From positions 581 to 64,580 of the forward strand of contig WTGP01000053.1 of the NCBI GenBank assembly GCA_011523505.1: a DNA stretch of 64,000 nucleotides, given 5' to 3'. The notes below the pieces were generated by a model. That model did not search any database. It worked only from the letters and a program-made list of their open reading frames with translations, and was not told where the DNA came from. The translations under genes and the position numbers were made by a program. The DNA comes from Gammaproteobacteria bacterium. GTDB lineage: Bacteria > Pseudomonadota > Gammaproteobacteria > Steroidobacterales > Foliamicaceae. This document shows, piece by piece, positions 6,001 through 26,040 of this stretch (within the stretch, counting starts at the first letter, position 1; the number at the start of each line of letters is the position of its first letter).

Positions 6001-6505
6001 AGATGGGCACGCCCCTGTTGCTTGAGGTGTACGTTGTGCCGGTGTTGTCGCGCGCGTCGAATTGTCGGGTCGAGCCCACCACCCGGAAGCGATTCGCGTA
6101 AGGCTTGATCGCGGCGTGGGCGTGCTGCCTTCCAATTTCGCCCGAGATCCAGCTATTCGGGTCAAAGGCCAAATCTCCGCGGTCAGGATTGAGCGGCCGC
6201 GCTTTCCTGGACGAGATGAACAGCAGTCGAAACTTGTCGCCTTCGTTGAGGCCCGCGGGCGTCAGCGCCCAGTCCGAGGGCACGTTGTAGGAACCGTCGG
6301 GGTTGGCGGTCTGCGCCGCGGCGCCGGCGGCGAGGCCCAGCGCCAGCCATCCCGCAAGCAACAGGCGCGGCGCGCCGGCGCGGCGCGGGCGGACGAAGGT
6401 CAGGAAATCAGGCCGCCCTGCGGCGTTGCCCGCGCGGGACCGGCCGTCGCCCGTTGCATGAGCGGCGGCCCGTGCGTGCGGCGATTCGGCAACCCCGATA
6501 GCCAC
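1..6505 (-). CDS. Giant secreted Calx-beta/Ig-like tandem-repeat surface protein, N-terminal part only (>2,100 codons; gene continues beyond window position 1)
   Basis: Absent from the ORF track because it has no stop in the window. Hand translation of the minus strand gives ...VTVTDAGHGLIVSKDTLTVR at 2-58. It gives a Calx-beta-like AQFSHAEYSVDEDAGAVTVTVNR at about 3.13-3.20 kb and a signal peptide RPRRAGAPRLLLAGWLALGLAAGAAAQ at about 6.31-6.39 kb. The + ORFs 38..3229 and 3248..6025 are its codon-aligned antisense shadows. No ATG is present; start candidates are GTG 6505 or CTG 6403. Confidence 0.8.
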   Translation of the reverse strand, partial: MAIGVAESPHARAAAHATGDGRSRAGNAAGRPDFLTFVRPRRAGAPRLLLAGWLALGLAAGAAAQTANPDGSYNVPSDWALTPAGLNEGDKFRLLFISSRKARPLNPDRGDLAFDPNSWISGEIGRQHAHAAIKPYANRFRVVGSTRQFDARDNTGTTYTSSNRGVPIFWLNGAKLADDYADFYDGTWDNYGLRDESGGTISVGWVATGSNTDGTLRTDSGGYGGVDNKDGRFVTGVPARNRNPLYQGGVRAYEAHLYGLSPVFVVGPPTPPGVTVSTSKVSLTELGGAGARASYTVKLDTDPGADVTITVESGDKTAVEVDTSSAAGLQDKLTFTRGTGGNWATAQTVTVRAVNDGDTVSEANVKVTHTAAVTPTSNAYHKIEIDDVDVSVTDAGAGVDVSKATLSLTEGGRSSYTVKLRSDPGADVVITVRSGDTSAVAVDTNATAPDDQNTLTFTHGTGGNWATAQTVTVRAVNDADTVSESNVKVTHAAAVTPTSNAYHGIKIDDVVVGVTDAGHGIDLSISRFRLDEPEIVSFSTYPYDVKLKSDPGADVVITVRSSDTSALLVDTDPKTPGDQATLTFTHGTAGNWATAQQVTMRTVEDPDEDSELVAITHTAAVTPANNPYHGLSADIQVTVDDAGAGLVLSKDSLNVTNGGTATFTVRLKSRPSSTVTVEPIPYPGADEFIEVSSSLSFAATGNAWKTPQTMTVTGKKLGRASFVLVAEMPGRVPYGHQSQLNVNVVEPGGVEVPGRPLSLTELGGARAEDRYAIRLYTDPGANVKIAVASGDPAVTVDTSSAAGLQDTLTLTPGAAGNWDTWQTVTVRAVNDANTVSESVTISHTATVTDTTNPFHHADIDDVTVKVTDAGHGFVVSEDALKVAENDATDTYTVRLKSRPDAGVTIRPSSSAPTIATVAPAALTFASTGDAWKTPRTVTVTGKGVGSATVSHSVDAPGATGYTASTPIGRVAVTVTRVPGVTLVPSVGMRVIEGNPARSYTAVLNTDPGATVTLTATSGHASAQVGTAQNGPFGSTATLTFTAGASGNWNTAQRVWVRGTPNDGNTSHDSVTVSHAATMPGNRGQYHGIAIDSLLVQVADSGLLPVAQFSHAEYSVDEDAGAVTVTVNRTGSAAARVQYATRDGTAKAGSDYAETTGSLIWASGEAAAKTFTVPITDDLAVAEGPQTFTVALTAEVIRNTPTALGDLRSATVTIVDDEVVGIVLSKDTLAVPEGGEATYTVRLGAPATAPVLLAVQGWHQGTDLTVSPHTLAFTAGENGTWSTPQTVTVAAKEDDDAINDTVELSHEARGGNYDHSTTLPVTVIDDEGTPTGIELKVDTSADTGAQTSVAEDAQTAPSVTVTAAVTGPPAAAYGEAKTVRVTVGKAGDSAVSGTDYAAVAPFDITLPKGNRSATASFTLDPSDDDTDEEDETLTLTGVSGDIVATEATITITDDDDPPVLSAARVSATEGDTGDETPNTLTFTVALSPASGREVTVAYADAGSAGAGTATSGTDYAAITGGTLTFAPGDTGKTVAVTATGDDIDEEDETVVLRLSSPVNATFDGGGATLDVSGEITDDDDPPLLSFAGNIRTAEGDAGDETPKTLTFPVKLAPESGRTVTVAYADAGTGDATSGTDYAAIAGGTLTFAPGETRKTVDVTVTGDAADEKHESIVLRLSSPVNAGFADDATTLDGAGTIRDDDDKPTLSLKLTPDTIGESGDDNESAVTASLSHPSGSKTTLSVSATPVSPAVAGDFTLSGNKTLTIAAGETDSSGTVTITANDNSVHADDKTVTVSARASGGRGVVDPAAVTLTIEDDEGPGVTLSRSMLALTEGHAANAAGTYTVKLKTDPGADVTITVASGDPAVTVDTSATAGLQDTLTFTHGSSGNWGTAQTVTVRAVDDADTVGEQKVEITHAAAVSGDSSNDYHQIDIDSVEVNVTDAGAGVLVSPRTLKVPPNDGTTTFDVRLKSAPASNIVITPTISGTHAEVSGALTFTPANWNEAQQVTVTGKTAGTADVSLAVTTHDGSGGDYPTSTTIPSVAVTVEATSAIVLSTETLTVAEGGSAEYTVKLSSEPSANVTVTIAGQSGTDLTLDPSTATLTFTTVNWATEQTVTVEASEDPDATNDSATLTHTAAGGDYGAVTVDLGVTVTDAGHGLIVSKDTLTVR
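4590..5690 (-). repeat. Three tandem ~366-378 bp intragenic coding repeats (module ...DPGADV.ITV.SGD...LTFT.GT.GNWATAQTVTVRAVND.DTVSE..V.VTH.AAVT...YH.I.IDDV.V.VTDAG.G)
   Basis: Antisense shadow ORFs 4629, 5007 and 5373 have near-identical sequences, so the period is 378/366 nt. More diverged copies of the same module occur at about 0.7-1.0 kb and 3.9-4.2 kb. Confidence 0.7.
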
Positions 6506-6512
6506 GCCCGAT

Positions 6513-9500
6513 TCACCACCGGGTCCGGATCTCGATCCCGAGGCCGTGCTCGGGCGGGTTCAGCGGGCTCTCGCGGCGGCTGAGCTTCAGCCCGAACGTC
6601 AGGTCCGGGGCGTCCGGGCCGTCCGGTTCGAGCTGCCAGCCGAGGCTCATGTCGCGGCCGAAGTCCGAGGCGCCGTAGCCGAGCGTGGGGCTGCCGATGA
6701 ACCGCTCCCGGAACGCGGGCATCCCGTAGGCGGCCTCGAGCGTCCAGCGCTTCGTCATGTCCTGGCCCATGCGGTTGCCGAGCGGGTCGGAGGCGAACAG
6801 CGCGTCGAGCCCGCCGGTGGCCTGCCCGCCGATGCTCTGGCGCAGGTTCAGCGACAGCCCGCGCCGGGAGTCCGGCGCCGGATCGTAAGCGAGCGAGGCG
6901 GAGAAGCCCGTGTCCCTGCGCCCGTCGGCCTCGTGGGCGAGCAGCGTGCGGGCCTGGATGTCGAGCGAGAGGCCGAGGCGCGGGGCGGCGACGGCCAGCC
7001 CGCCGCCGACCTCCACCCCGAAACCGGTCTCGGCGTCGCCGCCGTCGTGGCGCAGGCCGGCCTCGATCTTCGGGGTGAGGCTGCCGCCGCCGGGGAGCCC
7101 GAACCGCCAGCCGCCCTCCAGCCCCAGCCGCAGCCGGGTCACGTCGGCCGCGCCGGCCATCATGCCCTCGGTTTTTTCGGATGTCGTGCGCGACCACAGC
7201 GCGTCGGAGACCGCCGCCAGCGCCGGGCCGCGGCCTTCGCCGCCGAACAGCGAACCGCGCAGCCCCAGCGCCGCCATCGACCAGCCGAGGCCGGCGCGCA
7301 GTGTCTCGTGCGCCGCTTCCGGCCCGTTCCGGCCGGGTTCGGGGAATGGCCGGTTAGAAAGCGGGTAGGCCATTCGATCGGCGCGGCTCGCGCCGGGCCG
7401 CAGCGTCATGCGTCCGGCGCCGTACCCGGCCGCGCCCCAGAGGCTCAAGCGCTCCGAGGCGTCCCAGGCCGCGTAGGGCACGGCCGCGGTCAGGGTGGAC
7501 TCGGCCGTGCCGGAACCGTTTGCGGGACTGGACCAGCCACCCTCGCCCAGGCTCCGGGTGAGCGCCACGCCCACCAGCCAGGCGCCGCGCGCGTAGTCCA
7601 CGCCGAGCATGGCGCTGGCGACCTCGCCGTCGAGGTTGAGCGGCCCCTTGCGGCCGTGGAACGTGCTCTGCGCGCCCCGGCCCCAGAAGCCCAGCGTGCC
7701 GCCCCCGCCGTCCTCGCGGCCGGTGTACGTGAAGCTGCTGCCCATCAACAGGTACTGCAGCGTGCTCGTTTGCATGCCGGGATACTGGCCCTGGGGCGGG
7801 CCGCCCCAACCTCCGCCCGCGCCCATGGCCATTTGGCCGGCGCCGCCATCGAAGCCGCCGCCGACGCCGGGGGCGCCGCCCGATCCGAAGCTGGTGGAAC
7901 CGTCCGGCCCGATGCCGCCGCCGACGCCCGCGCCGAAAGGCCCGGCGGACGCGCCGCCGAACCCTTGCGAACCCTGCGCCTGCGGCCAGCCGATGCCCGG
8001 TTCCCGAAGCGCGTCGCGGCCCGCGAACGCGCCTTCGTCGGTGCCCGGCCCGAAGGCATCGCCATCGCAGGCTGCTCCGGCGGCCACGGGGCCGCCGAGC
8101 GTGCCGCGCGCGCCCTCAGCGCCGGAACCCCGCGGGGATGCGGCCTGGCCGGCCGGCGGGGATTCCGGTTCGTCCCGGCCCGCCGGGCTCGCCGCCGCCG
8201 TATCGGCGGGCGCCGCGCAGCGGGCGCCGGTTCCGGCGAACCCGTTGCCGCCGATGGGCCGCCCGGCGATCGTGCCGCGGAACCCGGGGGTTCTCGCGCC
8301 GCCGCGCGCCGCGGCGATGCGCGCCGCAACGCCCTCCAGCGCCTGTTCCGCCACCGCCCGCCCGAAGCGGCCGAGCCAGGCCTCGGGCAGCGGGCCGTCG
8401 TTCTCGATGGCGCCCTTGGCGGTGGCGCGGACGATGGTGACCGCCGCCGGGTTCGGTCTGCGGATATCGACCTCGAAGGTCTCTTCGCCCTCGTCGACGT
8501 CGTCCTCCACCGCCCAGACGCGGTACACCTTGCGCGTGTCGCCCTCCTCGAACGAGACCTCGCTGCCATAGCATTCGAAGTCGTATCCGATCTTGGCGCT
8601 GCCGGGAATGCAGACGGTTTGCACGGTGATCGGGCCGGGCGCGGGCTCGTTCAGCGTAATCGCGAACTCGAGGTCCTGGCCCTCCTTCGCGCTCGCATCC
8701 TCGATCGACACCTCGATGCCGTCGTAGTCGGTGACTTCGTCGTCTTCCACGGCGACGCTGGCGCTGTCGTTGGGCGATGCGGCCACCACATAGCCCGTGC
8801 CGCTCTTGACGGTGGCGCTCAGCGAGCCGTCCGGCTCGTCGACGTTGTCGTTGACGGTGGCGACCGTGTGATCCTCGGAACCGCTCGTCGGCACCGTCAC
8901 GGTCTTCACGCCGAGCGCGCTCGCGGCCACGTAGTTGCCGGTCTGTGCGATCTCGATCTTCACGTCCAGCGCCGCGGCGGGCGCCGGGTTGACCGTGACC
9001 GTGAAGGTCACGTCCTGGCCTTCGGTCACCTTGGCGGCGGCGCGGCTCACGGACACCGTGGGCGGCGGCAGGTCGTTGTCCTCGACATCGACCGTGACCG
9101 TTGTCGTCGCCGCGGGCCGGTAGCCCGTGCCGGTCAGTATCCGTGCCGAGATCGAACCGTTGGGTTCGTCGATGCCGTCGTCCTCGGTCGTTATCGCAAT
9201 GTTCGCGACGCCGTTCGAGTTCGTGGTGAAGGTCCGGGTGGCGATCTGGCTGCTCGGGCTCGCGAAGTTTCCGCTCTGGGTGATCCGCACCCGCACCGCC
9301 AGGCCGGCCGTGGCCGGCGTGCTCGTCAGCGTGAAGGTCACGTCCTGGCCCTCGGTCACGTCGGCGCCCTTTGTGATGGACACGGTGGGCGGCGGCAGGT
9401 CGTCGTCCAGCACGTCGGCCGTGCCCGAGTTGGCCGTGCCGTGCACGGTGTAGCCGCCGCCGGCCGCCAGGTCCGCGGTGATCGTGCCGTTGTCCTCGTC

Positions 9501-12500
9501 GTCGGTGTCCTGCTCCGTGGTGACCGTCAGCGTGCCCGTGCCGTCCGTGCCGATGCTGGCCGTGCGGTCGCCGTCCTGCCCGTCTTCCGCAAAATCGCCG
9601 CTGTCCGTCACGTCGATGTTCACGGTCAGCGCGCTGGCCGGCGCCGGCGAGGCGCTCAGGTTGAAGGTGATGACGCCGCCCTCGGTGACGTCGTTGCCGT
9701 CGGCGATGCTCACCACCGGCTTGTCGTCGTCGGCGACGTCGGCCGTGGCCGAGTTGTTCGTGCCGTGCACCGAGTAGCCGTTGCCGGCACGAAGCGTCGC
9801 GGTGATCGTGCCGTCCGGCTCGTTGACGCTGTCCGGGACCGTGGTGACGGTCAGCGTGCCCGTGCCGTTCGTGCCGATGGTGGCGGTGCGGTCGCCGGTC
9901 TGGCCGGACCCCGCGAAGCTGCCGCTGTCGGCGACCTTGACGTTCACGGTGATCGCGCTGGCCGGCGCCGGCGAGGCGCTCAGGTTGAAGGTGATGGCGC
10001 CGCCCTCGGTGACGTCGTTGCCGTCGGCGATGCTCACCACCGGCGTGGCCGGCGGCGGGTCGTCGTCGTCGTTGACCGCCGCCGTGCCCGAGTTGGCCGT
10101 GGCGTGCACCGAGTAGCCGCCGCCGGCCTTGAGCGTCGCGGTGATCGTGCCGTGGGGCTCGTCGACGTCGTCGGGCACGGTGGTGACGGTCAGCGTGCCC
10201 GTGCCGTCCGTGCCGACGGTGGCTGTGCGGTCGCCGGTCTGGCCGGACCCCGCGAAACTGCCGCTGTCGGCGACCTTGACGTTCACGGTGATCGCGCTGG
10301 CCGGCGCCGGGCTGGCGCTCAGGTTGAAGGTGATGGCGCCGCCCTCGTCGACGTTGTTGCCGTTGGCGATGCTCACGATGGGCGTGGCCGGCGGCGCTTC
10401 GTCGTTGTCGTTCACCGTGGCCGTGGCGGTATGGCTGCTGCCGTGCACCAGGTAGCCGTCGCCGGTCGCCAGCGCTGCGGTGATCGCGCCGGGCGGTTCG
10501 TCGATGCTGTCGTCGTCGGTGCCGACGGTCAGCGTGCCCGTGCCGTCCGTGCCGATGGTCGCGGTGCGGCTCCCGGCCTGGCCGCTCTTCGCGAAGCTGC
10601 CCTTTTGCGTCACCTCCACGTTCACGGTGATGGCGCCGGCCGGCGCCGGGCTGGCGCTCAGGTCGAAGGTGATCGTGCCGCCCTCGGTGACGGCGTTGCC
10701 GCCGGAAATGCTCACCACCGGCGTGTCCGTCCGGTCGTCGTCCCGCACGCGCACGCCGACGGACTTCGCGGTGACGTTCTCGTATTCCTCGATGCCGCTG
10801 ACGGTGTGGGTGAGCGTGGTGCGCTCGTCGTCCGCGTCCGCATCGTCCACCGCCGCCACATGGACGTATTGCAGCCGGTCCCAGTTGCTGCGCGTGAAGG
10901 TCAGGGTGGCGCTGGCGCCCGGCTGGGCGCTGCCGACGCGCACCTTCGCCGCCGCCGGGTCGGCGCTGGTGACCGTGACCGTCACGTCGCCGCTGGGGCA
11001 GCCGCGGCAGGCGCCGCCGGTCGGCTGCTTGCGCAACACCACGGAGTAGCGCCCGGACGCCCCGCCCTCGCCGACCGTCACGCTGGCGGCGCCGAGCGCC
11101 ACGCCCGCGACCGGGGTCTCCCGGTCCCAGATCGTGACGGCGGCCGGGGAGCGCCCGACCCCCACCCGGTCCGGGTGCTCGCTGAACAGTTCCACCGTGA
11201 ACTGCTCGTCGCCCTCGGTGGCGCCGTCGACGCGGATCCTGATCCGGACCGACTGCTGGTCATCGCCCGGCTCGAACACCACGGCGCGGCAGTCGCCGTC
11301 GACGTAGTCCCCGTTCCGCTCGGCGGTGCCCGCGAGGCAGCGCACCCCCACCTCCAGGCGCTCGGGGGCGGGCTGGTCGAGCACCACCGGCAGACTGAAG
11401 GTGGCGCCTTCCAGCACGAAATAGTTATCCCGGTCGAAGCCGGCCGTCGGGGTCTCGTTGAACCGGAAGTCCACCGTGCCGCTGCCCGACGCGCCGCCGT
11501 CGAGATTCGTACCGGAGGAGGCGGTCAGGGGGTCGAGGGCCAGGCTCACGGTTTCCGCGCCCTCGTCCGTGTTGTCCCCGATGCCGGTGAGGGTCAGCGT
11601 GGTGGCGCGCTTGGCGTTGGCGCCGCCGGTGAAGGTGATCGGGAGCTTGCCGCCGCTGAGGCCGCCGCACTGCACGCCGGTCTGGTTTTTGCAGGCGATG
11701 GTGTAGTCCGTGCCGCTGGCCGCGCCGCCGCCGATGGCGACCGTCACCGTCAGCGCCTCGGGCGACACCAGCGCCCGGCCGAGCGCCACCGTGACGGTCT
11801 TCACGCCGCCCTTCTCGGAGACGTTGCCGCCGGGGGCCGAGAGCGTGACCGAAGTGGGGTCGTCGTCGATGACGGTCACGGTGGCGGTCGTTTTCGCCGC
11901 GTCGAGGCTGAGCCCCGGCGTGGCCGTCGGCAGCGACAGCGCCGCGGTGTAGGTCTCGCGGGGCTCGTCGAGCGTGTCGGCCGCGAGCGGCAGGGCGACG
12001 GCGCGCGAGGACTGGGTCGAGGACAGGGACGGGTCGGAGTTCGAGCTCGTGCCGGTGCAGCGGTTGGTCGACTTCGAGCCGAAGCTCAGGAAGTCCGCCG
12101 GGAACTTTGCGGTGCCTTCCTCGACGCAGACGCGGAACGTGACCGGGCCGGCGCCGGACGACAGCGCCACCGTGCCGTTCGCGTCCCCGCCGGCGGCCGT
12201 CTCCGTCGCCGTCAGCGCCGTGGCCGCCCAGCCGATCGTGCGCCCGTCGTTCACGGTCACGTTGAAGGTCTTCTCCGTGGCGTGCGGGTCGGCGCCGCCG
12301 CCGACGTTGGTGCCGAGGCCCGAGCGGTCGAAGCCGTTGGCGCCGGCGCCGTCCGGGCCGAGCGCGATGGTGAAGGTCTCGCCGCCCGTTTCCGGGACCC
12401 CGTCCACCGTCGCCTCCAGCGTCAGTTCCGCCACGCGCGCGCCGGCGTCCTCGAAGCGCAGGTTCGGGGTGTCGGTGGTGGCGCCCGTGAGCGTGACGCC

Positions 12501-15500
12501 GGTGTTGCTCGCGCCGCTCTTCCCGGCCAGGCTCCAGTCGGCGGTGGAGACGCCGGCGCCGCCGCCGATCGACAGCGGCACGTCGATGATCTCGTCCTCG
12601 ACCAGCGCGCGCCCCAGGGTCACGGTGAACCCGATCGTGCCGCCCTCGTAGACCACGCCGGTCCCGACCCGCGTCAGGCGCACGACCGTCGGGTCGTTGT
12701 CGCTGGCGGTCGCCGTCACGGTCGCTGTCTTGCCGGCGTAGTCGCCGCCCGAGGCGGTGTGCTTGAGCGTCGCCTTGCCGGCCGCCCGGTCGCCGTCCTC
12801 GGGCACGGACACCGTCACCGTCTGCGCCGTCCCCCAGTCGGAGGTGGTGAACGTCAGCGACTCCGGGGTCGGCGTCAGCACCGTGCCCGCGTGACCCGTG
12901 ATCGCGACCGTCACCGAAGCCGACGGCTGGGTCGCCAGTGTCACCGTGTAGCCGGCGCTCGACCCTTCGGCGACGGTGAGCGTCGCGTCGGACAGCAACA
13001 GATTGGGCGTGTCGTCATCGGTCACCGTCACCGCCAGCGCCGCGGTCAGCGTGGCGTAGTCGCCGCCCGAGGCGGTGTGGGTGAGCCTGGCCGTGTCGTT
13101 GTCCGAGTCGTCGTCCTCGTCCGCCGACACCGTCACCGTCTGCGCCGTGTTCCAGTTCGAGGTGGTGAACGTGAGCGTCGCCGAGGACGGGTCGAGCGTG
13201 AGGTCGGTGTTCGCATGGCCGGCAATGGTCACGGTGACGTTGGCCGTCGGCTGCGAGGTCAGCTTCACCGTGTAGTCCGCGTCCGCTCCCTCGGTCACGG
13301 TGAGCGTCTCCTTCGAGAGCAGGATCTCCGCCGTCTCGTCGTCGGTCACCGTCACCGCCAGGTCCGCCGTCACCGACGCGTAGTCGCCGCCCGAGGCGGT
13401 GTGTGCGAGGGTGGCCGTGTCGTCGACCGCGTCGTCGTCGCCGGCCGCCGACACCGTGACGGTCTGCTCGCTCGCCCAGTCCGTGGTCGTGAACGTGAGG
13501 CTCGCCGGATTCCGCGTCACGTCGGTGTTCGCCGGGACCGCGATCGCCACGGTGACGTTGGCCGTCGGCTCCGTCGCAAGCTTCACCGTGTAACTCGCGC
13601 TGCCCCCCTCGGCCACCGTCAGCGGGTTCTTGGACAGCACCAGATTGGGCGAGTCGTCGTCGGTGGTGTTCACCGTCAGGTCTGCGGTCTCGCCGGCGTA
13701 GTCGCCGCCGGACGCGGTGTGTGTCAGGGTCGCCGTGTCGTTGACCGTGTCGTCGTCCTCGCCCGCCGACACAGTCACTGTCTGCGCCGTCGCCCAGTTC
13801 GAAGCCGTGAACGTGAGGCTCGTCGGACTCGGCGTCAGTTCGGTGCCCGCCTGGCCGGTGATCGCCACCGTCACCGTGGCCGTCGGCTCCGTCGCCAGCT
13901 TCACCGTGTATTCGGCGTCCGAATCTTCGGTGACGGCGAGCGTCGCCGCCGAAAGCACGATCCCGGCCTCGTCGTCGTCGGTGGTGTTCACCGTCAGGTC
14001 CGCGCTCTTGCCGGCGTAGTCCCCGCCCGAGGCGGTGTGGGTGAGCGTGGCCGTGTCGTCGGCCGCGTCGTCGTCCTCGCCCGCCGACACCGACACCGTC
14101 TGCTCGGTCTCCCAGTTCGAGGTCGTGAACGTCAGCGACGCCGGGCTCGGCGTCAGTTCGGCGCCCGCCTGGCCGGTGATCGCCACCGTGACCGTGGCCG
14201 ACGGCTCGGTCGCCAGTCTCACCGTGTAGCCGGCGCTCGACCCTTCGCCGACTTCGAGCGTCCCCTCGGACAGCACCAGGTTGGGCGAGTCGTCGTCGGT
14301 GGTGTTGACCTTCAGGGTCGCCGTCAGCGCGTCGTAGTCGCCGCCCGAGGCGGTGTGGGTCAGCGTCGCCTCGTCGTTGACCGTGTCGTCGTCCTCGCCC
14401 GGGGTCACCGTCACCGTCTGCGGCTCGTTCCAATTGGCGGACGTGAAAACGAGCTGCGCCGAGGACGGCTCGAGCGTGAGGTCGGTGTCCGCAAGGCCGG
14501 TGATGTCCACGATGACGTCGCTCGTCGGCGCCGAGGCCAGCGTCACCGTGTAGGTGTCGGCGTCGCCGCCTTCCGTCAGGGCGAGCGTCTCCTTCGACAA
14601 CAGGACCTCGGTCGTGTCGTCGTCGGTGACCGTCACCTGAAGCGCCGCCGTCAGCAACTCGTAGTCGCCGCCGGCGGCGATGTGGCTCAAGGTGTCCGTG
14701 TCGTTGAGCACGTCGTCGTCCTCGCCCGCCGTGACCGTCACCGTCTGCGGCTCGTTCCAGTCCGTGGTCGTGAACGTGAGCGTCGCCGGGACCGGGTCGA
14801 GCGTGAGGTCGGAGTCCGCCGGGAGTGCGACCTCCACCGTGACCGTCTGCGTCGGCTCGGTCGCCAGTCTCACCGTGTAGCTGGCGTCGCCGCCTTCCGC
14901 CACCGTCAGCGCAACGGTCGACAGCCCGATCTGCGGCGTCTGGGCGTCGGTCACCGTCAGGTCGAAGGCATTGTCCGTCCCGTGCGGGTCGGCGCCGCCG
15001 CCGACGTTGGTGCCGAGGCCGGTGCGGTCGAAGCCGTTCGCGCCGGCGCCGTCGGGGCCCAGCGCGACGGTGAAGGTCTCGCCGCCGGCCTCGACCCTGG
15101 CGTCGATGGCGGGGGTGAGTTCGAGGTACGCGGTGCGGGCGCCGCCGCCGGCGAAGCGCACGGCCGGGGTGGCGCTGTCGGTCGCCAGCAGGCTCACGCC
15201 GGTGTTCCGGCCGGCGGGGTTCTTCGCCAACGTCCATTCGTCGGGCGTGACGTTCGTGCCGGAGACCGCGAGCGGCACGTCGATGGTTTCGCCCGCGACC
15301 AGCGTCCGGCCCAGGTTGATCGTGAATTGCGTGCTGCCGCCCTCGCTGACGGTGACGCCGCTGCCCGGCCCGTCCAGGCTCACCACGGTCGGGTCGTCGT
15401 CGACGATCGTGACGGTGTGCGTGCTTTTCGGCGCATTCAGGCCCAGCCCCGCCACCGCGTCCGGCAGGGACAGCGTCGCGGAGAAGGTCTCGTCCGGCTC

Positions 15501-18500
15501 GTCCTCGCCGTCGCCGCGCAGGGTGAGGCTCACCGCCTGGCTCGACTGGCCCGAGGCGATGGCCGGATCCGGGTTGGCGTTGCCCGTGCCGGTGCAGCGG
15601 GCGTCGCCGGGGAAGCCGCGGTAGTCGCCGGTGGCGCCCAGCGTCGCGGCGCCGTCGGCGAGGCAGACGCGGAAGGTCGCCGGACCCGTGCCGGCGGAGA
15701 GGGCGGCGTTCACGCTGAATTGCTTCTCGGCGCCCGCCGCGCCCTCGGCGACGGATTGCGCGGTGGCCGCCCAGCCGAGGGTGCGCGTGACGGTCCCCGT
15801 CTCGTTGTCGTTCACCTTGACGTTGAAAGCATTGTCGACGCCGTGCGGGTCGGCGCCGCCGCCGACGTTGGTGTCCGCATCGGCATCGAACTGCGCATTG
15901 CTGCCCAGCGCGACGGTGAAGGTCTCGCCGCCGACCTCGGCGCCGTCCTGGGCGGTGGCGGTGAGCTCCAGCGTCGCGGTCCTGGCGCCGGCGCCGGCGA
16001 AGCGCACGGCCGGGGCGGCGGTGCCGAGCAGGGTCGCGCCGGTGTTGGCCGCGCCGCTCTTCGCCGCCAGGCTCCAGTCGCCGGGGGTGACGCCGGCGCC
16101 GGAGATCGAGAGCGGCGCGTCGATGACCTCGCCCTTCGCCAGCGCCCGCTCCAGGCTGACCGTGAACGCCACCTTGTCGCCCTCCCTGATGGCGCTGCGG
16201 CCCGCCCGGGCCAGGCGCACGACGGTCGGGTCGTCGTCGCGCAGGGTGACTTCCAGGACGCGCGGACTGGTTGCGAGATCCTCCCATCGATCATGCTTCA
16301 GCCACGCGGTGTAGGTCTCGTCCGGCTCGTCGATGGCGTCGGCAATCGACGTGAAGCTCACCGTGGCGCGCGACGCGCCGGCGCCGATGGTGAGGTCGGC
16401 GTTGGTGACGCTGTTGGTGCCGGTGCAGGACTCCGTGCCCAGCACGACGCCCCGGTAGTCCGTCCCGAAGGTCGCGGTACCGTCGCTCAGGCACACCTCG
16501 AAGGTGAGCGCCTCGCTCGCCGGCGACGAAAGCTCGACGCCGATCGACCCGGCCGCCGCGGTTTCGGTGACTTCCAGCGCCTTCGCGGCCCAGCCGAGCG
16601 TGCGCTGGTTTACGCCCCTGTCTCTCAGGTACATGGCATGTCGCCTGTCGCCGCGGCTGCCGGTGACGCCGCCGCCGAGGCCCGTGGCCGTCAGGCGCGG
16701 CGCGGCGCCGGTGGAACCGGCGGGAATGTCTACGTAGAACCGCTCGCTGTCCGCGTCGTCGTCGACTTCGGCGATGACTTGCACTGTAACGGCGGAGGGG
16801 CCAGCGCCGGAGTCCAGGCCGGTGAAGACCACCGTGCTGGTGTCCCGGTCGAGGCGCACGCCGGCCGAGCCCCCCGCATACAGGGTGAAATCCTCGTTCG
16901 GGGTGGCGCTGCTGCCGCCGATCGGCTGGAACAGCAGCGGCACCGCGAGCACCTCGCCGGAGACCAGCCCGCGGTTCAGGGCGAGGTGAATCTGCGCGTA
17001 AATGTCCAGGCCTTCGTAGGCATCTCTGACCGGCGTGGTCAGGGTGACATGGCCGGGGTCGTCGTCCACCACGGCGACCGTGGCGGCGTTGTTGGTCCCG
17101 ACGGTCCCGTAGTCGCCGGCGGCCAGCGTCGCCGTCACCGTGCCGTTCGCCTCGTCCGTACCGTCGGCGACCGTGGAGACGGTGAACGAGACGGTCTGCG
17201 CGCCCGTCGTCAAGGTGACCGTCCCGCGGCCGAGGTTGCCGGCCGCCACGAACCCGCCCGACTGCGCCACCTCGAAGTTCACCGTCAGGTCCGCCGGCAC
17301 GGCGACGTCCGACGTCACCGTGAACGCCGCCGGCGTGCCCTCGGTCACCGACGCGGCGTCCGCGGCGATCCGGAGCCGCGGCTTGTCGTCATTGGCGATG
17401 GTCAGCGTCACGTCCTCCGGCTGCCCCACCGGGTCGAGTCCGCCGCTGGCGGTGGCCCACACCGTGACCTCCTTGTAGACTTCGACCGAGTCGTCGTCCG
17501 CGGCGGTGACGGTCACCTTGCCGGTGCTCGCGGTCTGTCCGGCGGGGATGGTCAGGCGCCTGTTCTGGCTGAGCGTGAAGTCGTCCGCCGTGGCGGGGGA
17601 GACGGGGTCGGCCTCGACCACCAGGGTCACGTCATTGGCCGTCGGCCCGCTCAGGCTCGCCGTCACGGTGGAGCGGTTGGCGCCGAGTTCGGCGTTCTCG
17701 AAGATGCGCGGCGGGCTGAGGTCGAGGCTGGCGACCGACACGTCGTCGTCCTTGATCGGGATCGTCCAGCTTTCGTGCAAACCCTCATCGCCGGGACCGA
17801 CCCAGTAGCCGTCGCCGGCCAGCACCGTCATCTTCGCCCAGCCGTGCGGTTCATCGACGAGGTCGTTGCGTATCCGCACGTTGGGTTCCTTGAGGCCATG
17901 CTCGTTCAGACAGACCCTCGACCGGCCCCAACTGCGATGTGTCTGGTCGGGGCTGTAGAAGAACGCCCCCTGGACCTCGACAAAGAGCTGCACGCAGGCA
18001 TGCGGCGGGCCGACAATCTGCCAATACGCATAGGTATCTTGACGGGGTTGGCCCTCCGTCACCTCCCAGCGGGTCTGTGAGTAGGTGTATGCGCCATCCG
18101 GCTTCTTCCCTCGGATGGTCGATTTGCCGGCGCCCAGGATGCCCGCGTGACTACGGAGCCTGCGCACCGTGGAATCGCCTTCGTCGTCCCTGACCGTGAC
18201 CGTGGCCGCGGCGGGCGAACCGGCGCGATAGCCATGGCTCCCGAACGCATCGATGCGCGCCGTGACCGAGCCGTTGCCCGCCTGAACCTCGTTGTCCGCC
18301 GTGGGAAGACTCAGGATCGTGCTTGCAAGGCGGCCCGCCGGGATAACGCCGCTCGCAGCGTTGGAACCGCCGGAAACGTCGCCGAACCAGGTTGCCTTGA
18401 TCGCCACCGCGAGATCGGTCGTGGGCGCCGGGTCCGCCGCCACGATGAACTGGGCGCGTTCGCCCTCGACCACCGCCGCGGCCGCGGGCTCGATCGTGAG

Positions 18501-20900
18501 CGTCCCCGACACGCCCGCGTCGTTGTCCCTGACCGTCACCGCCTGCGTGGCGGACACCGCGTCGTAGCCGCCGCCCGACGCCGTGTGCGCCACGGACGCG
18601 GACCAGTTGGTGGCGCGGGCGTCGTCCTCGCCGATGCTCGCCGTCACCGTCTGCGCCACGTTCCATTGCGACGGCTGGAACGTCAGCGAGGCCGGGCTCA
18701 GGTTGAACTGGGGCGGGGAGGCGAACAGGTCCGGCCGGCCCGACACGACGGCCGCCGCGAGCGCCACCGTCACCGCCGCCGACGGCTGCGTTTCCAGCGC
18801 CACGGTCCAGGCGGCGCTGCCGCCCTCGTCCACGGACACCGCCGCGGGCGACAGCACCAGGCCAGCCATCGCCGCCTCGTCGTCGTCGGCGATGTTCACC
18901 GTGATGTCCGCGGTCAGGCCGGTGTAGTCGCCCCCGGCGGTCGTGAGCCTCAGCGTCGCGGTGTCGTCGACGGTGTCGCCGTCGTGGCCGGCGAAGACCC
19001 TCACCGACCGCAGCACCTGCCAGTGCGTGGTCGCGAGCGTCGCGGGGTCCGTGGTGAACGTGAGCGTGTCCTGGTTGCCGGGCTTGTGCGGGTCGGTGTC
19101 CACCGTCAGGTCGGTGTTGGCGTGCCCCGTGACCGTCAGCGTCACGGTGTTCGCCTTCGGATGGGTGTCCAGCTTCACGGTGAAGCTGGCGCCGAACCCT
19201 TCCCTGACGGCCAGCGTCGCCAGCGACGGGATGATCCCCTGCTCGTCGAGGTCGCTGATGGACAACGGCAGGTCCGCCGTCACGCCCTCGTAGTTCACGC
19301 CCGAGGCGGTGTGCCGCAGGATGGCCGTGTTGTCATCGACGTCGTGGTCCGGCCACGTGTGGAACCTCACCCTCTGCCACTCGTCCCAGTTCGCGGGGGT
19401 GAACGTCAGGGGATTGGGAAACGGGTCCCCGAAGGTACCGGCGTCATCGTTGTCGATCGATATCCAACGGGCCCGCTCGCCGATGGCCGAGACCCTCACT
19501 GTCACGTCCGCGGCCGGCGCCGGCGCACGCGACAGCTTCACGCGGTAGATTTTGGGCTGAGCTTCGGTCACGTCCAGCTTCGGATGCTCAAGCAGGATTA
19601 CCGGCCCTTCGTCGTCGTGGATATTCACCGACAGGGCCGCGCTCTCGCCGGAGAAGCCGCCCGTGACGGTATGGGTCAGCGCTACCGGCGGGGGGTTCAC
19701 CGCGTCGTTGTCATGGTCCGCCGCCACCGTCACCCGCTGGGGCGCCGCCCAGTTCGCGCCGGCGGGAAAGGTCAGCGTTCCGGGGGTCACCCTCAGGCCC
19801 GCGGCGTTGGTATTCCCCGTGATCGACACCGTCACCGCCGCCGCCGGCGGCCTTCCCAGCCGCACCGTGTAGTACGACTCCGACCCTTCGGTGACGGCCA
19901 GCGTGTCCGTGGACAGGATGACCGCCGGATGCCGCTTCATCAGGACGGAGGCGGAGAGGTCGGCGACCTGTGCCTTCTCGGTATCGTTCTCGTTGGGCCT
20001 GTTGCCGGGCACCCGCAGCAGGTCGCCGGACACGGTCACCGTCGCCGAGTAGTCGGAGGCGACGGGCTGACCGTTGTGCGTCAGGGTAATCTCGACGGAA
20101 CGATGGCTGGGGGTGCCGTGGCTGGTGCTGGTGCCGGTTTGCCGCGCGAGCAACCTGGCGCTAATGATGGACACGCCCGGGGGGGCGCCGCTCAGGGTGA
20201 ATTTGGCAAGGCCCGCGCGGCTGAACGATACCGGCCAGTGGGGCACCGTTCCGCCCACGATGTGGCCCGACTCGATCAGGTAAACGGACTTCTGGTCGCG
20301 CACGCCCCCGCCGCCGCCGCCGCCCGCGAACAGGAAGGACGCGTTGCGCGGCGTCAGCGTGATCTTCGCCTGGTTCAGGGAAGACGCCTCGATTTGGGCC
20401 GGGCTGGCTGTCAGGAACGGCGTGGTCTGCGCCGCCGCGCCGGCGGCGAGGCCGAGGGCCAGGGCGGCGGCGAGCAGACGGCGGCGGGCGGGGGCGCGCC
20501 GGCCGGGGCTTGGGGAGCTTGCGGAGGACGGGAGAGGGGTGGATCGGGGCGGCGCGGGTGTGGATGCGGGGAGAAAGCCGGCGGGGGCCGGCGCGGTGGT
20601 GGACGCGGTGAGAGAGTCGGCTCGGGCCGGCGCGGTTGCGGGAAGCTCAGGCCAAAGCGGAAAAAGCGCTGATCGAAGCGCGGAAACTGACGCGGGAAGC
20701 CGGCGCCTAATGGACGCACTCACCGGCACGGCACGGCACGGCACGGCACGGCACGGCACGGCACGGCACGGCACGGCAATTATACCAAGGGCGTGACGCG
20801 GTGATGAAAAGAAGTCAAGCCACCGTTTTCGCACCTGGAAGCCTCGGATCGCAGCAACCGCCGCTCCGATCTCCCCAGCCCAGCCTGCGCTGTAAGCCAC
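6513..20900 (-). CDS. Giant (about 4,700 aa) type Va autotransporter with a Calx-beta/Ig-like tandem-repeat passenger; the coordinates give the maximal ORF and the true start is uncertain (GTG 20723 is more likely than GTG 20900)
   Basis: Single uninterrupted 4,795-codon ORF. The C-terminus is a classical autotransporter barrel (GFWGRGAQSTFHG...LDGEVASAMLGVDYARGAWLVGVAL...GIEIRTRW-stop). The signal peptide RRAPARRRLLAAALALGLAAGAAAQ lies at about 20.43-20.50 kb. Passenger modules carry DEPDETF/ETFTVALG and LTHTASGGDY...VTVTDDD signatures. Confidence 0.9.
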   Translation of the reverse strand: MAYSAGWAGEIGAAVAAIRGFQVRKRWLDFFSSPRHALGIIAVPCRAVPCRAVPCRAVPVSASIRRRLPASVSALRSALFPLWPELPATAPARADSLTASTTAPAPAGFLPASTPAPPRSTPLPSSASSPSPGRRAPARRRLLAAALALGLAAGAAAQTTPFLTASPAQIEASSLNQAKITLTPRNASFLFAGGGGGGGVRDQKSVYLIESGHIVGGTVPHWPVSFSRAGLAKFTLSGAPPGVSIISARLLARQTGTSTSHGTPSHRSVEITLTHNGQPVASDYSATVTVSGDLLRVPGNRPNENDTEKAQVADLSASVLMKRHPAVILSTDTLAVTEGSESYYTVRLGRPPAAAVTVSITGNTNAAGLRVTPGTLTFPAGANWAAPQRVTVAADHDNDAVNPPPVALTHTVTGGFSGESAALSVNIHDDEGPVILLEHPKLDVTEAQPKIYRVKLSRAPAPAADVTVRVSAIGERARWISIDNDDAGTFGDPFPNPLTFTPANWDEWQRVRFHTWPDHDVDDNTAILRHTASGVNYEGVTADLPLSISDLDEQGIIPSLATLAVREGFGASFTVKLDTHPKANTVTLTVTGHANTDLTVDTDPHKPGNQDTLTFTTDPATLATTHWQVLRSVRVFAGHDGDTVDDTATLRLTTAGGDYTGLTADITVNIADDDEAAMAGLVLSPAAVSVDEGGSAAWTVALETQPSAAVTVALAAAVVSGRPDLFASPPQFNLSPASLTFQPSQWNVAQTVTASIGEDDARATNWSASVAHTASGGGYDAVSATQAVTVRDNDAGVSGTLTIEPAAAAVVEGERAQFIVAADPAPTTDLAVAIKATWFGDVSGGSNAASGVIPAGRLASTILSLPTADNEVQAGNGSVTARIDAFGSHGYRAGSPAAATVTVRDDEGDSTVRRLRSHAGILGAGKSTIRGKKPDGAYTYSQTRWEVTEGQPRQDTYAYWQIVGPPHACVQLFVEVQGAFFYSPDQTHRSWGRSRVCLNEHGLKEPNVRIRNDLVDEPHGWAKMTVLAGDGYWVGPGDEGLHESWTIPIKDDDVSVASLDLSPPRIFENAELGANRSTVTASLSGPTANDVTLVVEADPVSPATADDFTLSQNRRLTIPAGQTASTGKVTVTAADDDSVEVYKEVTVWATASGGLDPVGQPEDVTLTIANDDKPRLRIAADAASVTEGTPAAFTVTSDVAVPADLTVNFEVAQSGGFVAAGNLGRGTVTLTTGAQTVSFTVSTVADGTDEANGTVTATLAAGDYGTVGTNNAATVAVVDDDPGHVTLTTPVRDAYEGLDIYAQIHLALNRGLVSGEVLAVPLLFQPIGGSSATPNEDFTLYAGGSAGVRLDRDTSTVVFTGLDSGAGPSAVTVQVIAEVDDDADSERFYVDIPAGSTGAAPRLTATGLGGGVTGSRGDRRHAMYLRDRGVNQRTLGWAAKALEVTETAAAGSIGVELSSPASEALTFEVCLSDGTATFGTDYRGVVLGTESCTGTNSVTNADLTIGAGASRATVSFTSIADAIDEPDETYTAWLKHDRWEDLATSPRVLEVTLRDDDPTVVRLARAGRSAIREGDKVAFTVSLERALAKGEVIDAPLSISGAGVTPGDWSLAAKSGAANTGATLLGTAAPAVRFAGAGARTATLELTATAQDGAEVGGETFTVALGSNAQFDADADTNVGGGADPHGVDNAFNVKVNDNETGTVTRTLGWAATAQSVAEGAAGAEKQFSVNAALSAGTGPATFRVCLADGAATLGATGDYRGFPGDARCTGTGNANPDPAIASGQSSQAVSLTLRGDGEDEPDETFSATLSLPDAVAGLGLNAPKSTHTVTIVDDDPTVVSLDGPGSGVTVSEGGSTQFTINLGRTLVAGETIDVPLAVSGTNVTPDEWTLAKNPAGRNTGVSLLATDSATPAVRFAGGGARTAYLELTPAIDARVEAGGETFTVALGPDGAGANGFDRTGLGTNVGGGADPHGTDNAFDLTVTDAQTPQIGLSTVALTVAEGGDASYTVRLATEPTQTVTVEVALPADSDLTLDPVPATLTFTTTDWNEPQTVTVTAGEDDDVLNDTDTLSHIAAGGDYELLTAALQVTVTDDDTTEVLLSKETLALTEGGDADTYTVTLASAPTSDVIVDITGLADTDLTLEPSSAQLVFTSANWNEPQTVTVTPGEDDDTVNDEATLTHTASGGDYDALTATLKVNTTDDDSPNLVLSEGTLEVGEGSSAGYTVRLATEPSATVTVAITGQAGAELTPSPASLTFTTSNWETEQTVSVSAGEDDDAADDTATLTHTASGGDYAGKSADLTVNTTDDDEAGIVLSAATLAVTEDSDAEYTVKLATEPTATVTVAITGQAGTELTPSPTSLTFTASNWATAQTVTVSAGEDDDTVNDTATLTHTASGGDYAGETADLTVNTTDDDSPNLVLSKNPLTVAEGGSASYTVKLATEPTANVTVAIAVPANTDVTRNPASLTFTTTDWASEQTVTVSAAGDDDAVDDTATLAHTASGGDYASVTADLAVTVTDDETAEILLSKETLTVTEGADADYTVKLTSQPTANVTVTIAGHANTDLTLDPSSATLTFTTSNWNTAQTVTVSADEDDDSDNDTARLTHTASGGDYATLTAALAVTVTDDDTPNLLLSDATLTVAEGSSAGYTVTLATQPSASVTVAITGHAGTVLTPTPESLTFTTSDWGTAQTVTVSVPEDGDRAAGKATLKHTASGGDYAGKTATVTATASDNDPTVVRLTRVGTGVVYEGGTIGFTVTLGRALVEDEIIDVPLSIGGGAGVSTADWSLAGKSGASNTGVTLTGATTDTPNLRFEDAGARVAELTLEATVDGVPETGGETFTIALGPDGAGANGFDRSGLGTNVGGGADPHATEKTFNVTVNDGRTIGWAATALTATETAAGGDANGTVALSSGAGPVTFRVCVEEGTAKFPADFLSFGSKSTNRCTGTSSNSDPSLSSTQSSRAVALPLAADTLDEPRETYTAALSLPTATPGLSLDAAKTTATVTVIDDDPTSVTLSAPGGNVSEKGGVKTVTVALGRALVSPEALTVTVAIGGGAASGTDYTIACKNQTGVQCGGLSGGKLPITFTGGANAKRATTLTLTGIGDNTDEGAETVSLALDPLTASSGTNLDGGASGSGTVDFRFNETPTAGFDRDNYFVLEGATFSLPVVLDQPAPERLEVGVRCLAGTAERNGDYVDGDCRAVVFEPGDDQQSVRIRIRVDGATEGDEQFTVELFSEHPDRVGVGRSPAAVTIWDRETPVAGVALGAASVTVGEGGASGRYSVVLRKQPTGGACRGCPSGDVTVTVTSADPAAAKVRVGSAQPGASATLTFTRSNWDRLQYVHVAAVDDADADDERTTLTHTVSGIEEYENVTAKSVGVRVRDDDRTDTPVVSISGGNAVTEGGTITFDLSASPAPAGAITVNVEVTQKGSFAKSGQAGSRTATIGTDGTGTLTVGTDDDSIDEPPGAITAALATGDGYLVHGSSHTATATVNDNDEAPPATPIVSIANGNNVDEGGAITFNLSASPAPASAITVNVKVADSGSFAGSGQTGDRTATVGTDGTGTLTVTTVPDDVDEPHGTITATLKAGGGYSVHATANSGTAAVNDDDDPPPATPVVSIADGNDVTEGGAITFNLSASPAPASAITVNVKVADSGSFAGSGQTGDRTATIGTNGTGTLTVTTVPDSVNEPDGTITATLRAGNGYSVHGTNNSATADVADDDKPVVSIADGNDVTEGGVITFNLSASPAPASALTVNIDVTDSGDFAEDGQDGDRTASIGTDGTGTLTVTTEQDTDDEDNGTITADLAAGGGYTVHGTANSGTADVLDDDLPPPTVSITKGADVTEGQDVTFTLTSTPATAGLAVRVRITQSGNFASPSSQIATRTFTTNSNGVANIAITTEDDGIDEPNGSISARILTGTGYRPAATTTVTVDVEDNDLPPPTVSVSRAAAKVTEGQDVTFTVTVNPAPAAALDVKIEIAQTGNYVAASALGVKTVTVPTSGSEDHTVATVNDNVDEPDGSLSATVKSGTGYVVAASPNDSASVAVEDDEVTDYDGIEVSIEDASAKEGQDLEFAITLNEPAPGPITVQTVCIPGSAKIGYDFECYGSEVSFEEGDTRKVYRVWAVEDDVDEGEETFEVDIRRPNPAAVTIVRATAKGAIENDGPLPEAWLGRFGRAVAEQALEGVAARIAAARGGARTPGFRGTIAGRPIGGNGFAGTGARCAAPADTAAASPAGRDEPESPPAGQAASPRGSGAEGARGTLGGPVAAGAACDGDAFGPGTDEGAFAGRDALREPGIGWPQAQGSQGFGGASAGPFGAGVGGGIGPDGSTSFGSGGAPGVGGGFDGGAGQMAMGAGGGWGGPPQGQYPGMQTSTLQYLLMGSSFTYTGREDGGGGTLGFWGRGAQSTFHGRKGPLNLDGEVASAMLGVDYARGAWLVGVALTRSLGEGGWSSPANGSGTAESTLTAAVPYAAWDASERLSLWGAAGYGAGRMTLRPGASRADRMAYPLSNRPFPEPGRNGPEAAHETLRAGLGWSMAALGLRGSLFGGEGRGPALAAVSDALWSRTTSEKTEGMMAGAADVTRLRLGLEGGWRFGLPGGGSLTPKIEAGLRHDGGDAETGFGVEVGGGLAVAAPRLGLSLDIQARTLLAHEADGRRDTGFSASLAYDPAPDSRRGLSLNLRQSIGGQATGGLDALFASDPLGNRMGQDMTKRWTLEAAYGMPAFRERFIGSPTLGYGASDFGRDMSLGWQLEPDGPDAPDLTFGLKLSRRESPLNPPEHGLGIEIRTRW
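8740..10725 (-). repeat. Six tandem ~330-345 bp intragenic repeats (module P.VSI..GN.V.EGG.ITF.LSASPAP...ITVNV.V...G.F...GQ.G.RTA.IGT.GTGTLTV.T..D..DEP.G.ITA.L..G.GY.VH......A.V.DDD)
   Basis: Read from the translated ORF. Units 2 and 3 share a 43-residue identical run (EGGAITFNLSASPAPASAITVNVKVADSGSFAGSGQTGDRTAT). They also share identical DNA runs of about 50 nt (compare 9.88-10.03 kb with 10.22-10.37 kb). Confidence 0.8.
12700..14935 (-). repeat. Seven tandem ~318-327 bp intragenic repeats (module L.LS...L.V.EG....YTV.L...P...VTV.I.G....L...P..LTFT..NW...QTVTV.A.EDDD..D..ATLTHTASGGDY.....L.V...DDD)
   Basis: GGDY-containing motifs recur at about 12760, 13075, 13399, 13717, 14035, 14353 and 14680. 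The antisense shadow ORFs at these sites have near-identical starts (MWVS.AVS...). Confidence 0.85.
20725..20778 (-). repeat. Perfect pentanucleotide microsatellite: (GGCAC)x10 plus a partial unit on the + strand, equal to (GTGCC)n on the coding strand of the giant autotransporter
   Basis: Direct reading: caccGGCACGGCACGGCAC...GGCACGGCAat. There are ten uninterrupted units at 20725-20774 followed by GGCA. Confidence 0.97.
20779..20787 (-). promoter_or_regulatory. Putative extended -10 promoter element TGGTATAAT (minus strand) for the giant autotransporter gene
   Basis: The reverse complement of 20771-20790 is ccTTGGTATAATtgccgtgc, a perfect TATAAT preceded by TGn. It directly abuts the microsatellite. 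A TTGACT at 20813-20818 lies 28 nt away, too far to act as its -35. Confidence 0.45.
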
Positions 20901-21080
20901 TTACATCCCCAGCGGACTACCCACCATGCAACGTATATGTTGCGTAAGTATAAGCCATTGCCGAAGTTTCCGGCCGAAGTTTCCGGGCGCTGCGTGACGC
21001 TCGCTTCGCCGCCGCCGGGCGTGGTGGCCAAACGGCACTTCGTCTTACAATGCCGGCGAGCGTAGGAACAGGACCAGAGC

Positions 21081-21743: not shown

Positions 21744-21757
21744 GAACACGCATACGC

Positions 21758-21871
21758 GAGCCCTTCATTGCCCTCTTTCTTCCGGGGGCGTCGGCGGCAG
21801 GAGCCGCCGCCGAGCCCCATGGATGGGTTCATGCGTCCACCGGAGGAAAGAGGGCAATGAAGGGCGGGCTC
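21758..21871. repeat. 114-bp imperfect inverted repeat (about 26-28 bp arms) with a nested GC hairpin; possible bidirectional terminator or REP/MITE-like element
   Basis: Left arm is GAGCCCTTCATTGCCCTCTTTCTTCCGG (21758-21785). The right arm (21840-21871) is its reverse complement with 1 mismatch and a 4-nt bulge. An inner hairpin CGGCGGC-agga-GCCGCCG lies at 21792-21809. The element lies between convergent genes. Confidence 0.6.
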
Positions 21872-21893
21872 GGAGCGAACCCGTATCACCGGC

Positions 21894-22802: not shown

Positions 22803-22817
22803 CGCCCTGGACCGGCG

Positions 22818-23309: not shown

Positions 23310-23316
23310 GCGCCCC

Positions 23317-24645: not shown

Positions 24646-24664
24646 CGCTCCCCCCAGAACCCCG

Positions 24665-26032: not shown

Positions 26033-26040
26033 GAGTCCTC

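Follow-up and report, generated by a model that had tools for sequence, protein, structure and literature searches.

A giant Calx-beta adhesin candidate with an autotransporter-related C-terminal barrel in a gammaproteobacterial genome

The 64,000-nucleotide stretch of Gammaproteobacteria bacterium DNA analysed here (assembly GCA_011523505.1, contig WTGP01000053.1, positions 581 to 64,580; hereafter the window) carries on its minus strand, at 6513..20723, a giant gene of 4,736 codons plus stop. We propose, with a probability of about 0.75, that its product is a giant Ca2+-binding surface adhesin or fibre, which exports itself and is anchored by a C-terminal outer-membrane beta-barrel derived from autotransporters. 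From one end to the other, the protein comprises a leader, a signal peptide, ~35 modules, a junction, a spacer and the barrel. An earlier note, made from the sequence alone, had described it as a type Va autotransporter with a passenger of beta-sandwich/Calx-beta modules. The order of Sec signal, passenger and C-terminal barrel indeed agrees with classical Va, but ~18 barrel strands are predicted, and the autotransporter family of Pfam (PF03797) is reached only via relatives and in part. The protein would act like an autotransporter adhesin, but on present evidence it falls outside the 12-strand definition of Va, and the earlier interpretation is partly supported.

The gene and its modular passenger

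The minus-strand frame is uninterrupted from 20900 down to the stop codon at 6513-6515. The GTG at 20723, already chosen as the start in the earlier note, is the last canonical start upstream of the signal peptide and yields a protein of 4,736 amino acids (aa), so that the single giant open reading frame (ORF) of about 4,700 codons claimed there stands. This GTG lines up with the ATG or GTG starts of homologues (GTGAGTGCGTCC versus ATGAGTGCGTCC). GC contents at the three codon positions of the frame are 0.66/0.57/0.93, as expected for a genuine gene of a GC-rich genome. A plus-strand ORF at 6546-18080 (3,844 codons) was discarded as an antisense shadow, its translation being R/G/A-rich junk.

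Such a gene might also be an assembly artefact made of collapsed or mis-joined repeats, or a decaying pseudogene. Its internal repeats reach 84% amino-acid identity in a self-BLAST comparison, a difficulty for assembly from short reads; the signal-peptide core has no canonical start codon beside it; and the same locus was not found in another assembly, either by exact look-up of the neighbouring FGE-sulfatase ORF or by an exact search of the JGI metagenomes for the flank of the repeat tract described below. Nevertheless, we consider this explanation very improbable. The 4,736 codons are uninterrupted and retain their high third-position GC content, and both the start codon and the long leader are features of the family; the conserved leader explains why no start codon is found beside the signal-peptide core, and it confirms GTG 20723 as the start. 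Moreover, the C-terminal ~1,500 aa of the passenger (aa 2727-4216) are colinear, at 45-47% identity, with genes in two metagenome-assembled genome (MAG) records assembled as whole chromosomes, which argues against an assembly chimera at least for that part, the C-terminal third. Family members of 3,500-7,300 aa are also common. Finally, the Calx-beta score given below and the thousands of barrel homologues indicate that the feature is not due to chance.

The passenger (8406..19970, minus strand, as are all features of the gene located below) consists of ~35 acidic modules of 105-125 aa, most of which end in DDD, DND or DDE; such a signature is present at ~29 module ends. Self-BLAST shows modules of 105-115 aa, all interrelated, tiling ~aa 310-4190 (numbered from 20900), and the passenger contains 13.3% D+E for 5.2% K+R. 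Two module types occur in tandem arrays: seven A-type modules, LTFT..NW..QTVTV..DDD..LTHTASGGDY..VTVTDDD, at 12684..14933 (Tandem Repeats Finder [TRF] period 318, 6.7 copies), and six B-type modules, VSI..G..V.EGG.ITF.LSASPAP, at 8733..10733 (period 339, 4.0 copies). Hidden Markov models built from the repeats recovered 7 tandem and at least 6 diverged A-type modules, as well as 6 tandem and 2 diverged B-type modules, in agreement with the seven and six units counted in the earlier note. All peptide strings quoted there were likewise retrieved (GFWGRGAQSTFHG, LDGEVASAMLGVDYARGAWLVGVAL, terminal GIEIRTRW, DEPDETF/DEPDETY, and ETFTVALG...GGGADPHG).

Several lines of evidence indicate that these modules are beta-sandwiches. 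The whole protein matches Pfam Calx-beta (PF03160) with E = 1e-31 (109.9 bits for a cut-off of 27), and four modules are individually significant: the best one at 11121..11456, one at ~16230-16574, a second within the same 480-aa segment, and one at ~8451-8675. Most modules match no Pfam family and are related to the others only by self-similarity; some show weak similarity to LapA domains. In a PDB sequence search, the last module matches the CBD domains of NCX1 (E = 3.6e-7) over an acidic 'DDD..E..E.F' stretch, which contributes Ca2+ ligands in CBD1. We modelled with AlphaFold2 a 365-aa stretch spanning a Calx-beta module with a Pfam match, an A-like module and a B module, using an alignment of paralogous modules plus 31 database relatives. 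The model (predicted local distance difference test, pLDDT, 80.8) consists of three all-beta domains of ~7 strands each. Its top Foldseek matches are the Calx-beta domains CBD1 and CBD2 of the Na+/Ca2+ exchangers NCX1 and CALX (target-normalised TM-scores of 0.61-0.77 for single domains, with root-mean-square deviations, rmsd, of 2.6-4.3 A), followed by cadherins, integrins and other Ig-like tandem domains, and no beta-helix is found among the 50 hits listed. The passenger thus belongs to Calx-beta by both PF03160 score and sandwich fold, and a chain of beta-sandwich/Calx-beta modules, not a beta-helix, is what both the model and its CBD and cadherin matches bear out.

The few cysteines of the passenger are found almost only as close pairs within modules (aa 969/997, 1470/1492, 1746/1769, 2925/2948, 3070/3078, 3188/3204, 3298/3301, and 4097/4110, numbered from nt 20900; 59 has to be subtracted for numbering from GTG 20723). 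Their spacing suggests short disulfide loops, which could matter for export through the barrel.

The C-terminal barrel and the proposed route of export

The C-terminal outer-membrane beta-barrel domain (6516..7763) is ~416 aa long, and not ~330 aa as first proposed. It had also been called an unmistakable translocator, which does not hold for the protein itself: its own C-terminus has neither a PF03797 match, even at E<=10, nor a PDB sequence match. Kinship with autotransporter barrels appears through close relatives, as 6 of the 27 aligned homologues, which are 52-62% identical to the query, pass PF03797 with 28-49 bits for a 26-bit cut-off (best E = 9e-13). Every one of these matches covers domain residues ~27-250 and profile positions 1-207 of 255 only. 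The expected agreement with autotransporter barrel models is thus obtained for some close homologues and over part of the profile, but not for the query. Judging from these sequences, about the first ten barrel strands are homologous to PF03797. In addition, the protein ends in the aromatic residue of GIEIRTRW, and W is the last residue in 252 of the 257 family members retrieved.

These matches would also suit an ordinary type Va barrel with 12 strands, a divergent sequence and long loops, in which AlphaFold2 over-calls strands. BrkA and Hbp barrels among the Foldseek matches, the classical order of signal, passenger and C-terminal barrel, and the classical terminal W all point in the same direction. 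However, ~165 residues follow the end of the PF03797 alignment, versus ~48 residues and two strands in classical barrels. The AlphaFold2 model of the domain (pLDDT 78.9, predicted TM-score 0.66) contains a 6-residue helix and a short strand followed by 18 strands, ten within the part aligned with PF03797 and eight after it, with block pLDDT values mostly between 76 and 90 in the latter stretch. Family-averaged hydrophobicity alternates amphipathically along strands 8-18, as expected for membrane strands. Foldseek searches of PDB with this model return outer-membrane barrels only. Ranking first are 22-strand TonB-dependent receptors (query-normalised TM-score ~0.43), and BrkA comes next, superposing poorly (target-normalised TM-score 0.50-0.55, 17% identity, rmsd 8 A); Hbp, AaaA, OmpG and the 18-strand Occ channels are also listed. 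An ordinary 12-strand barrel is therefore unlikely in our view, and the 12 strands stated in the earlier note give way to ~18 in the prediction.

We thus read the barrel as an autotransporter beta-domain that would have been enlarged to ~18 strands, a count which, as a modelling result, we favour by a narrow margin only. A comparison of the last 8 strands with the first 10 returned a probability of 1.3%, and so provides no evidence that the extra strands arose by internal duplication. Several results weigh against this reading. No Pfam autotransporter match was obtained at E<=10 with the whole protein or with its C-terminal 445 or 595 aa, and neither the C-terminal 495 aa nor the family profile matched any PDB sequence. 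Alignment of the barrel family with the C-terminal 320 aa of E. coli Ag43 using hhalign was not significant (probability 1%). The model lacks a good superposition with any solved barrel (TM-scores of ~0.55 or lower), and the strand count is the DSSP output of one AlphaFold2 model built from a 28-sequence alignment.

Between the last module and the barrel lies a junction motif, IENDGPLPEAWLGRFGRAVAEQALEGVAARIAAAR, predicted to form an amphipathic helix (8301..8408). Its core (PLPEAWLGRFGRAVAEQALEGV; PMPxAWLARFGRTVAEQALDGI in the family form) recurs in 110 of the 143 family members, where a median distance of 130 aa separates it from the FWGR motif of strand 1; in the window protein it is 234 aa upstream. 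The intervening Gly/Ala/Pro-rich spacer (7764..8300) of ~180 aa exceeds the family median by ~100 aa. The pore helix of classical autotransporters lies immediately before the barrel (PMC6555100), while here the model of the ~416-aa domain shows before strand 1 only the 6-residue helix and the short strand already mentioned. The conserved helix and the spacer may act together as the lumen-filling element of a wider barrel.

How the protein relates to known systems can now be specified. Classical Va proteins have barrels of 12 strands and passengers that are usually beta-helical, with exceptions such as EstA (PMC6555100). As in BrkA, Hbp, EspP and Ag43, a Sec signal, a passenger and a C-terminal barrel with a terminal aromatic residue are united here in one polypeptide, the first ~ten strands of whose barrel are, through close relatives, homologous to PF03797. 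The differences are the barrel of ~416 aa and ~18 predicted strands, the beta-sandwich modules in place of the usual beta-helix (PMC6555100), and the helix motif, which in this family lies 130-234 aa before the barrel instead of being directly adjacent. Ig-like repeat passengers are typical of the inverse, or Ve, class (PMC6555100), and the protein resembles intimin and invasin in that a tandem Ig-like beta-sandwich passenger is attached to a monomeric barrel (PMC6555100). However, the order of domains is opposite, the barrel being located at the extreme C-terminus here and in all listed family members; no periplasmic or LysM domain was found in the protein, and its barrel is not of the 12-strand intimin type.

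A third comparison is with giant adhesins secreted by type I systems (LapA, SiiE, BapP-like), with which the protein shares a chain of Calx-beta/cadherin-like modules that is very long, acidic and marked by Ca2+-site signatures (PMC12153261), weak LapA-domain matches and, probably, the same job in adhesion. The giant Calx-beta/cadherin-like adhesins described so far (LapA, SiiE) do use type I secretion (PMC12153261), and the barrel could accordingly be only an anchor, or porin-like, with the passenger being exported by another route, such as the type I route of LapA/RTX adhesins. We hold this to be most improbable: no RTX repeat or type I signal family was detected in Pfam scans, and the C-terminus is occupied by a barrel, part of which is homologous to autotransporter translocators, instead of a type I signal. 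There is also an N-terminal Sec-type signal, and no gene for an ABC transporter, a membrane-fusion protein or TolC is found among the neighbour ORFs scanned.

Self-export through the barrel, modelled on known type V secretion (PMC6555100), would proceed as follows. Sec would deliver the protein to the periplasm, the beta-barrel assembly machinery would insert the barrel (ten autotransporter-like strands followed by a predicted ~eight where classical barrels have two) into the outer membrane, and the passenger would be threaded outward, C-terminus first. Once outside the cell, the modules would fold successively and bind Ca2+ at their DDD-rich junctions, forming a rod which, from module count and typical domain size, we estimate at 100-150 nm. 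The likely role of such a rod would be attachment to the host matrix or to other cells, in a Ca2+-rich habitat of the sponge type. Type V secretion is defined by small barrels of 12 or 16 strands (PMC6555100); an enlarged barrel with folded-domain passengers of up to ~7,000 aa would widen the known limits of self-export, and a barrel family of this kind would offer a new scaffold for surface display.

The N-terminal leader and the promoter-proximal repeat tract

Translation from GTG 20723 starts with an N-terminal extension of ~79 aa rich in P/S/A/T/R (20487..20723), which contains a 39-nt tandem repeat (20530-20636, TRF) and precedes the signal-peptide core. Extensions of 60-85 aa are found at the same place in homologues, with a conserved MSA..AW(L/W)RR..SPPE(P/S)S; this leader does not resemble the extended signal peptide region (ESPR) of known autotransporters. 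A nucleotide motif, CCGCCTGAG.CTTCC, recurs in the leader across lineages (in the window as ggcctgagcttcc near 20650), and the extension could serve as an extended signal peptide or, alternatively, as a conserved RNA element in the leader. No Rfam family matched in a scan of the leader. Behind the extension, sequence inspection identifies the Sec-type core RRRLLAAALALGLAAGAAA, followed by Q (20430..20486), as the N-terminal Sec signal of a Va-like protein; the hydrophobic region and the AxA|Q site are common to the homologues and to the paralogue described below. The next ~150 aa form an N-terminal tip (19971..20429) without family match, although one homologous locus (L032) encodes an N-terminus that resembles it.

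Immediately upstream of the gene is a perfect (GCCGT)11 repeat (20724..20778, minus strand; TRF period 5, 11.0 copies, 100% matches), which lies between the start codon and a -10-like hexamer, TATAAT (20779..20784, minus strand). A TTGACT (20813-20818, minus strand) is located 28 nt upstream of TATAAT. On the coding strand, (GCCGT)11 is followed by GCCG and then by the start, GTGAGTGCGTCC. In the whole window, a single further simple sequence repeat reaches 5 copies or more. A repeat is present at the equivalent position in 33 of the 52 homologous genes with a complete 5' end, which belong to several phyla, whereas repeats of that kind number 45 in total across all 1.4 Mb of homologous loci. 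Repeat units are 5, 7 or 8 nt long (GCCGGGTC, GGTCGCCG, GCCGA, AGCCG, GCCGGTC, and others) and occur in 5-63 copies, within a conserved layout: TTGACA, ~20 nt, TA(T/C)AAT, repeat, 0-25 nt, and ATGAG(C/T)GCG. In one pair of loci, the 300-nt flanks are identical but the copy numbers are 14.8 and 39.8.

As a simple sequence repeat in the 5' region of a surface-protein gene, (GCCGT)11 has the position that characterises contingency loci. Repeat-controlled adhesin genes include uspA2, with AGAT repeats in its 5' untranslated region, hmw1A/hmw2A, with 7-bp repeats, and nadA, with a TAAA tract. The present family has in common with them a short tandem repeat in the promoter or leader of a type V adhesin gene, a unit which is not a multiple of three and a variable copy number; it differs by units that are GC-rich and of 5-8 nt, present in up to 63 copies and starting right after the -10 box. 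We are inclined to believe that the tract modulates expression, although such an effect is conjecture and two facts speak against it. First, a scan of 20300-21900 for consensus promoters found no site and no canonical -35/-10 spacing, because the TTGACT-TATAAT spacer of 28 nt is outside the 16-18 nt range. Secondly, the tract lies upstream of the start codon and thus cannot act by frameshift. Indeed, frameshift switching was rejected, as the tract ends before the conserved start and, in many homologues, a stop codon stands immediately ahead of that start. Should expression be affected, the hypervariable leader repeat, together with the many paralogues per genome, would suggest that surface display changes in a stochastic or graded manner. 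Cell-to-cell differences in display are suggested by the repeat tracts, and we found no report of them for these bacteria. Separately, a terminator-like hairpin followed by a T-run, GCGCTTCGATCAGCGC TTTTTCCGCT, is present at 20666-20681 on the minus strand, ~45 nt past the start and within the leader region; the count of such sites there is within chance expectation.

Family, hosts and neighbouring genes

The barrel defines a large family. A word-indexed search found at least 698 homologues, several of them labelled 'autotransporter outer membrane beta-barrel domain-containing protein' by NCBI, and an exhaustive profile search retrieved 9,070 cluster representatives at E<=1e-3, of which 4,514 reach E<=1e-30. 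All 150 matches listed have the barrel at their very C-terminal end. The 137 representatives that were new in the exhaustive search have a median length of 1,960 aa, the largest ones reaching 5,031, 7,203 and 7,300 aa. Thus, the earlier suggestion that the window protein is among the largest autotransporters and has an atypical cargo is right as to its large size, but within the family the protein is not the largest and its architecture is common. To our knowledge, it is larger than any characterised autotransporter. LapA, Big, LRR and ricin-type domains occur in other passengers attached to this barrel, a variety which makes the barrel a general export module. Despite labels already given by annotation pipelines to this large family, no published description was found: the literature on Calx-beta together with autotransporters contained no description of this architecture that we could find, and nothing relevant came up on autotransporters with 18 strands.

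When one genome per species was scanned, at least 560 loci with the barrel were located. Carrier MAGs are labelled as Gammaproteobacteria, Pseudomonadales, Pseudohongiella, Alphaproteobacteria, Thalassobaculaceae, Binatia, Poribacteria, Acidobacteria and others, and a single genome often has six or more copies, some in tandem. The barrel was also detected in Acidimicrobiales and Acidimicrobiaceae MAGs (L033, protein P0059), hosts expected to lack an outer membrane; these carriers were set aside as probable binning errors, the contigs being only 8-20 kb long. Many carrier MAG names (COS, CAR, RHO and SB06xx bins) resemble names from sponge-microbiome studies, in keeping with PMC8163846. Most carriers are thus uncultured bacteria that are apparently associated with sponges. 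For the window itself, a sponge origin follows from its relatives only, which counts against the part of our proposal that concerns habitat.

Previous work on sponge symbionts gives this distribution a context. One study reports that sponge-symbiont genomes are enriched in Calx-beta (PF03160) (PMC11706023); another reports enrichment and lateral transfer of genes for attachment through cadherin and fn3 domains, and notes that few sponge MAG lineages encode recognisable secretion systems (PMC8163846). Relatives of the present gene occur in MAGs with sponge-suggestive names, including Poribacteria, but those studies counted domains and did not describe barrel, export route, leader or repeat tract. 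New here are the junction motif, the conserved N-terminal extension, the (GCCGT)11 tract with its equivalents in homologues, and the downstream giant paralogue. A self-exporting adhesin family would give sponge symbionts a route to the surface. Since Calx-beta domains, according to two reports (PMC5400394, PMC11670116), also make up the sponge aggregation factor, the fibres might engage or mimic the cell-adhesion system of the host, although host mimicry or host binding is speculative. More broadly, and only tentatively, the family might represent an undescribed type V subclass, with an ~18-strand barrel, a possible helix/spacer plug and very long Ca2+-binding chains, whose many paralogues behind hypervariable repeats would form a variable symbiont coat able to engage or mimic host adhesion; we regard this combination as rather doubtful.

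The window, which contains dnaX, recR-like and rsgA genes, is chromosomal and derives from an uncultured gammaproteobacterium. The DnaX encoded there shares 99% identity with a protein from a Gammaproteobacteria MAG and 50% with DnaX of Ectothiorhodospira. A TonB-dependent receptor gene and an outer-membrane protein barrel gene are found nearby and, together with the gammaproteobacterial DnaX, point to a diderm host.

Downstream of the giant gene, a second giant paralogue (2..6505, minus strand) starts at GTG 6505, 7 nt past the stop of the first gene, and extends over more than 2,168 codons before the window ends. Its signal core, LLLAGWLALGLAAGAAAQT, and its module types are those of the first gene, and both genes probably form one co-transcribed unit. 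Its N-terminal domain of ~250 aa (DGSYNVPSDWALTPAG..KFRLLF; DGSY.VP.DWALKPSG..KFRLLF) has no Pfam match and recurs at the N-terminus of homologues at five loci (L014, L018, L028, L055, and L063). Upstream of the giant gene, at 21894-30170, are FGE-sulfatase, amidohydrolase, sulfatase, TonB-dependent receptor and TRAP transporter genes, a set which fits the use of sulfated glycans.

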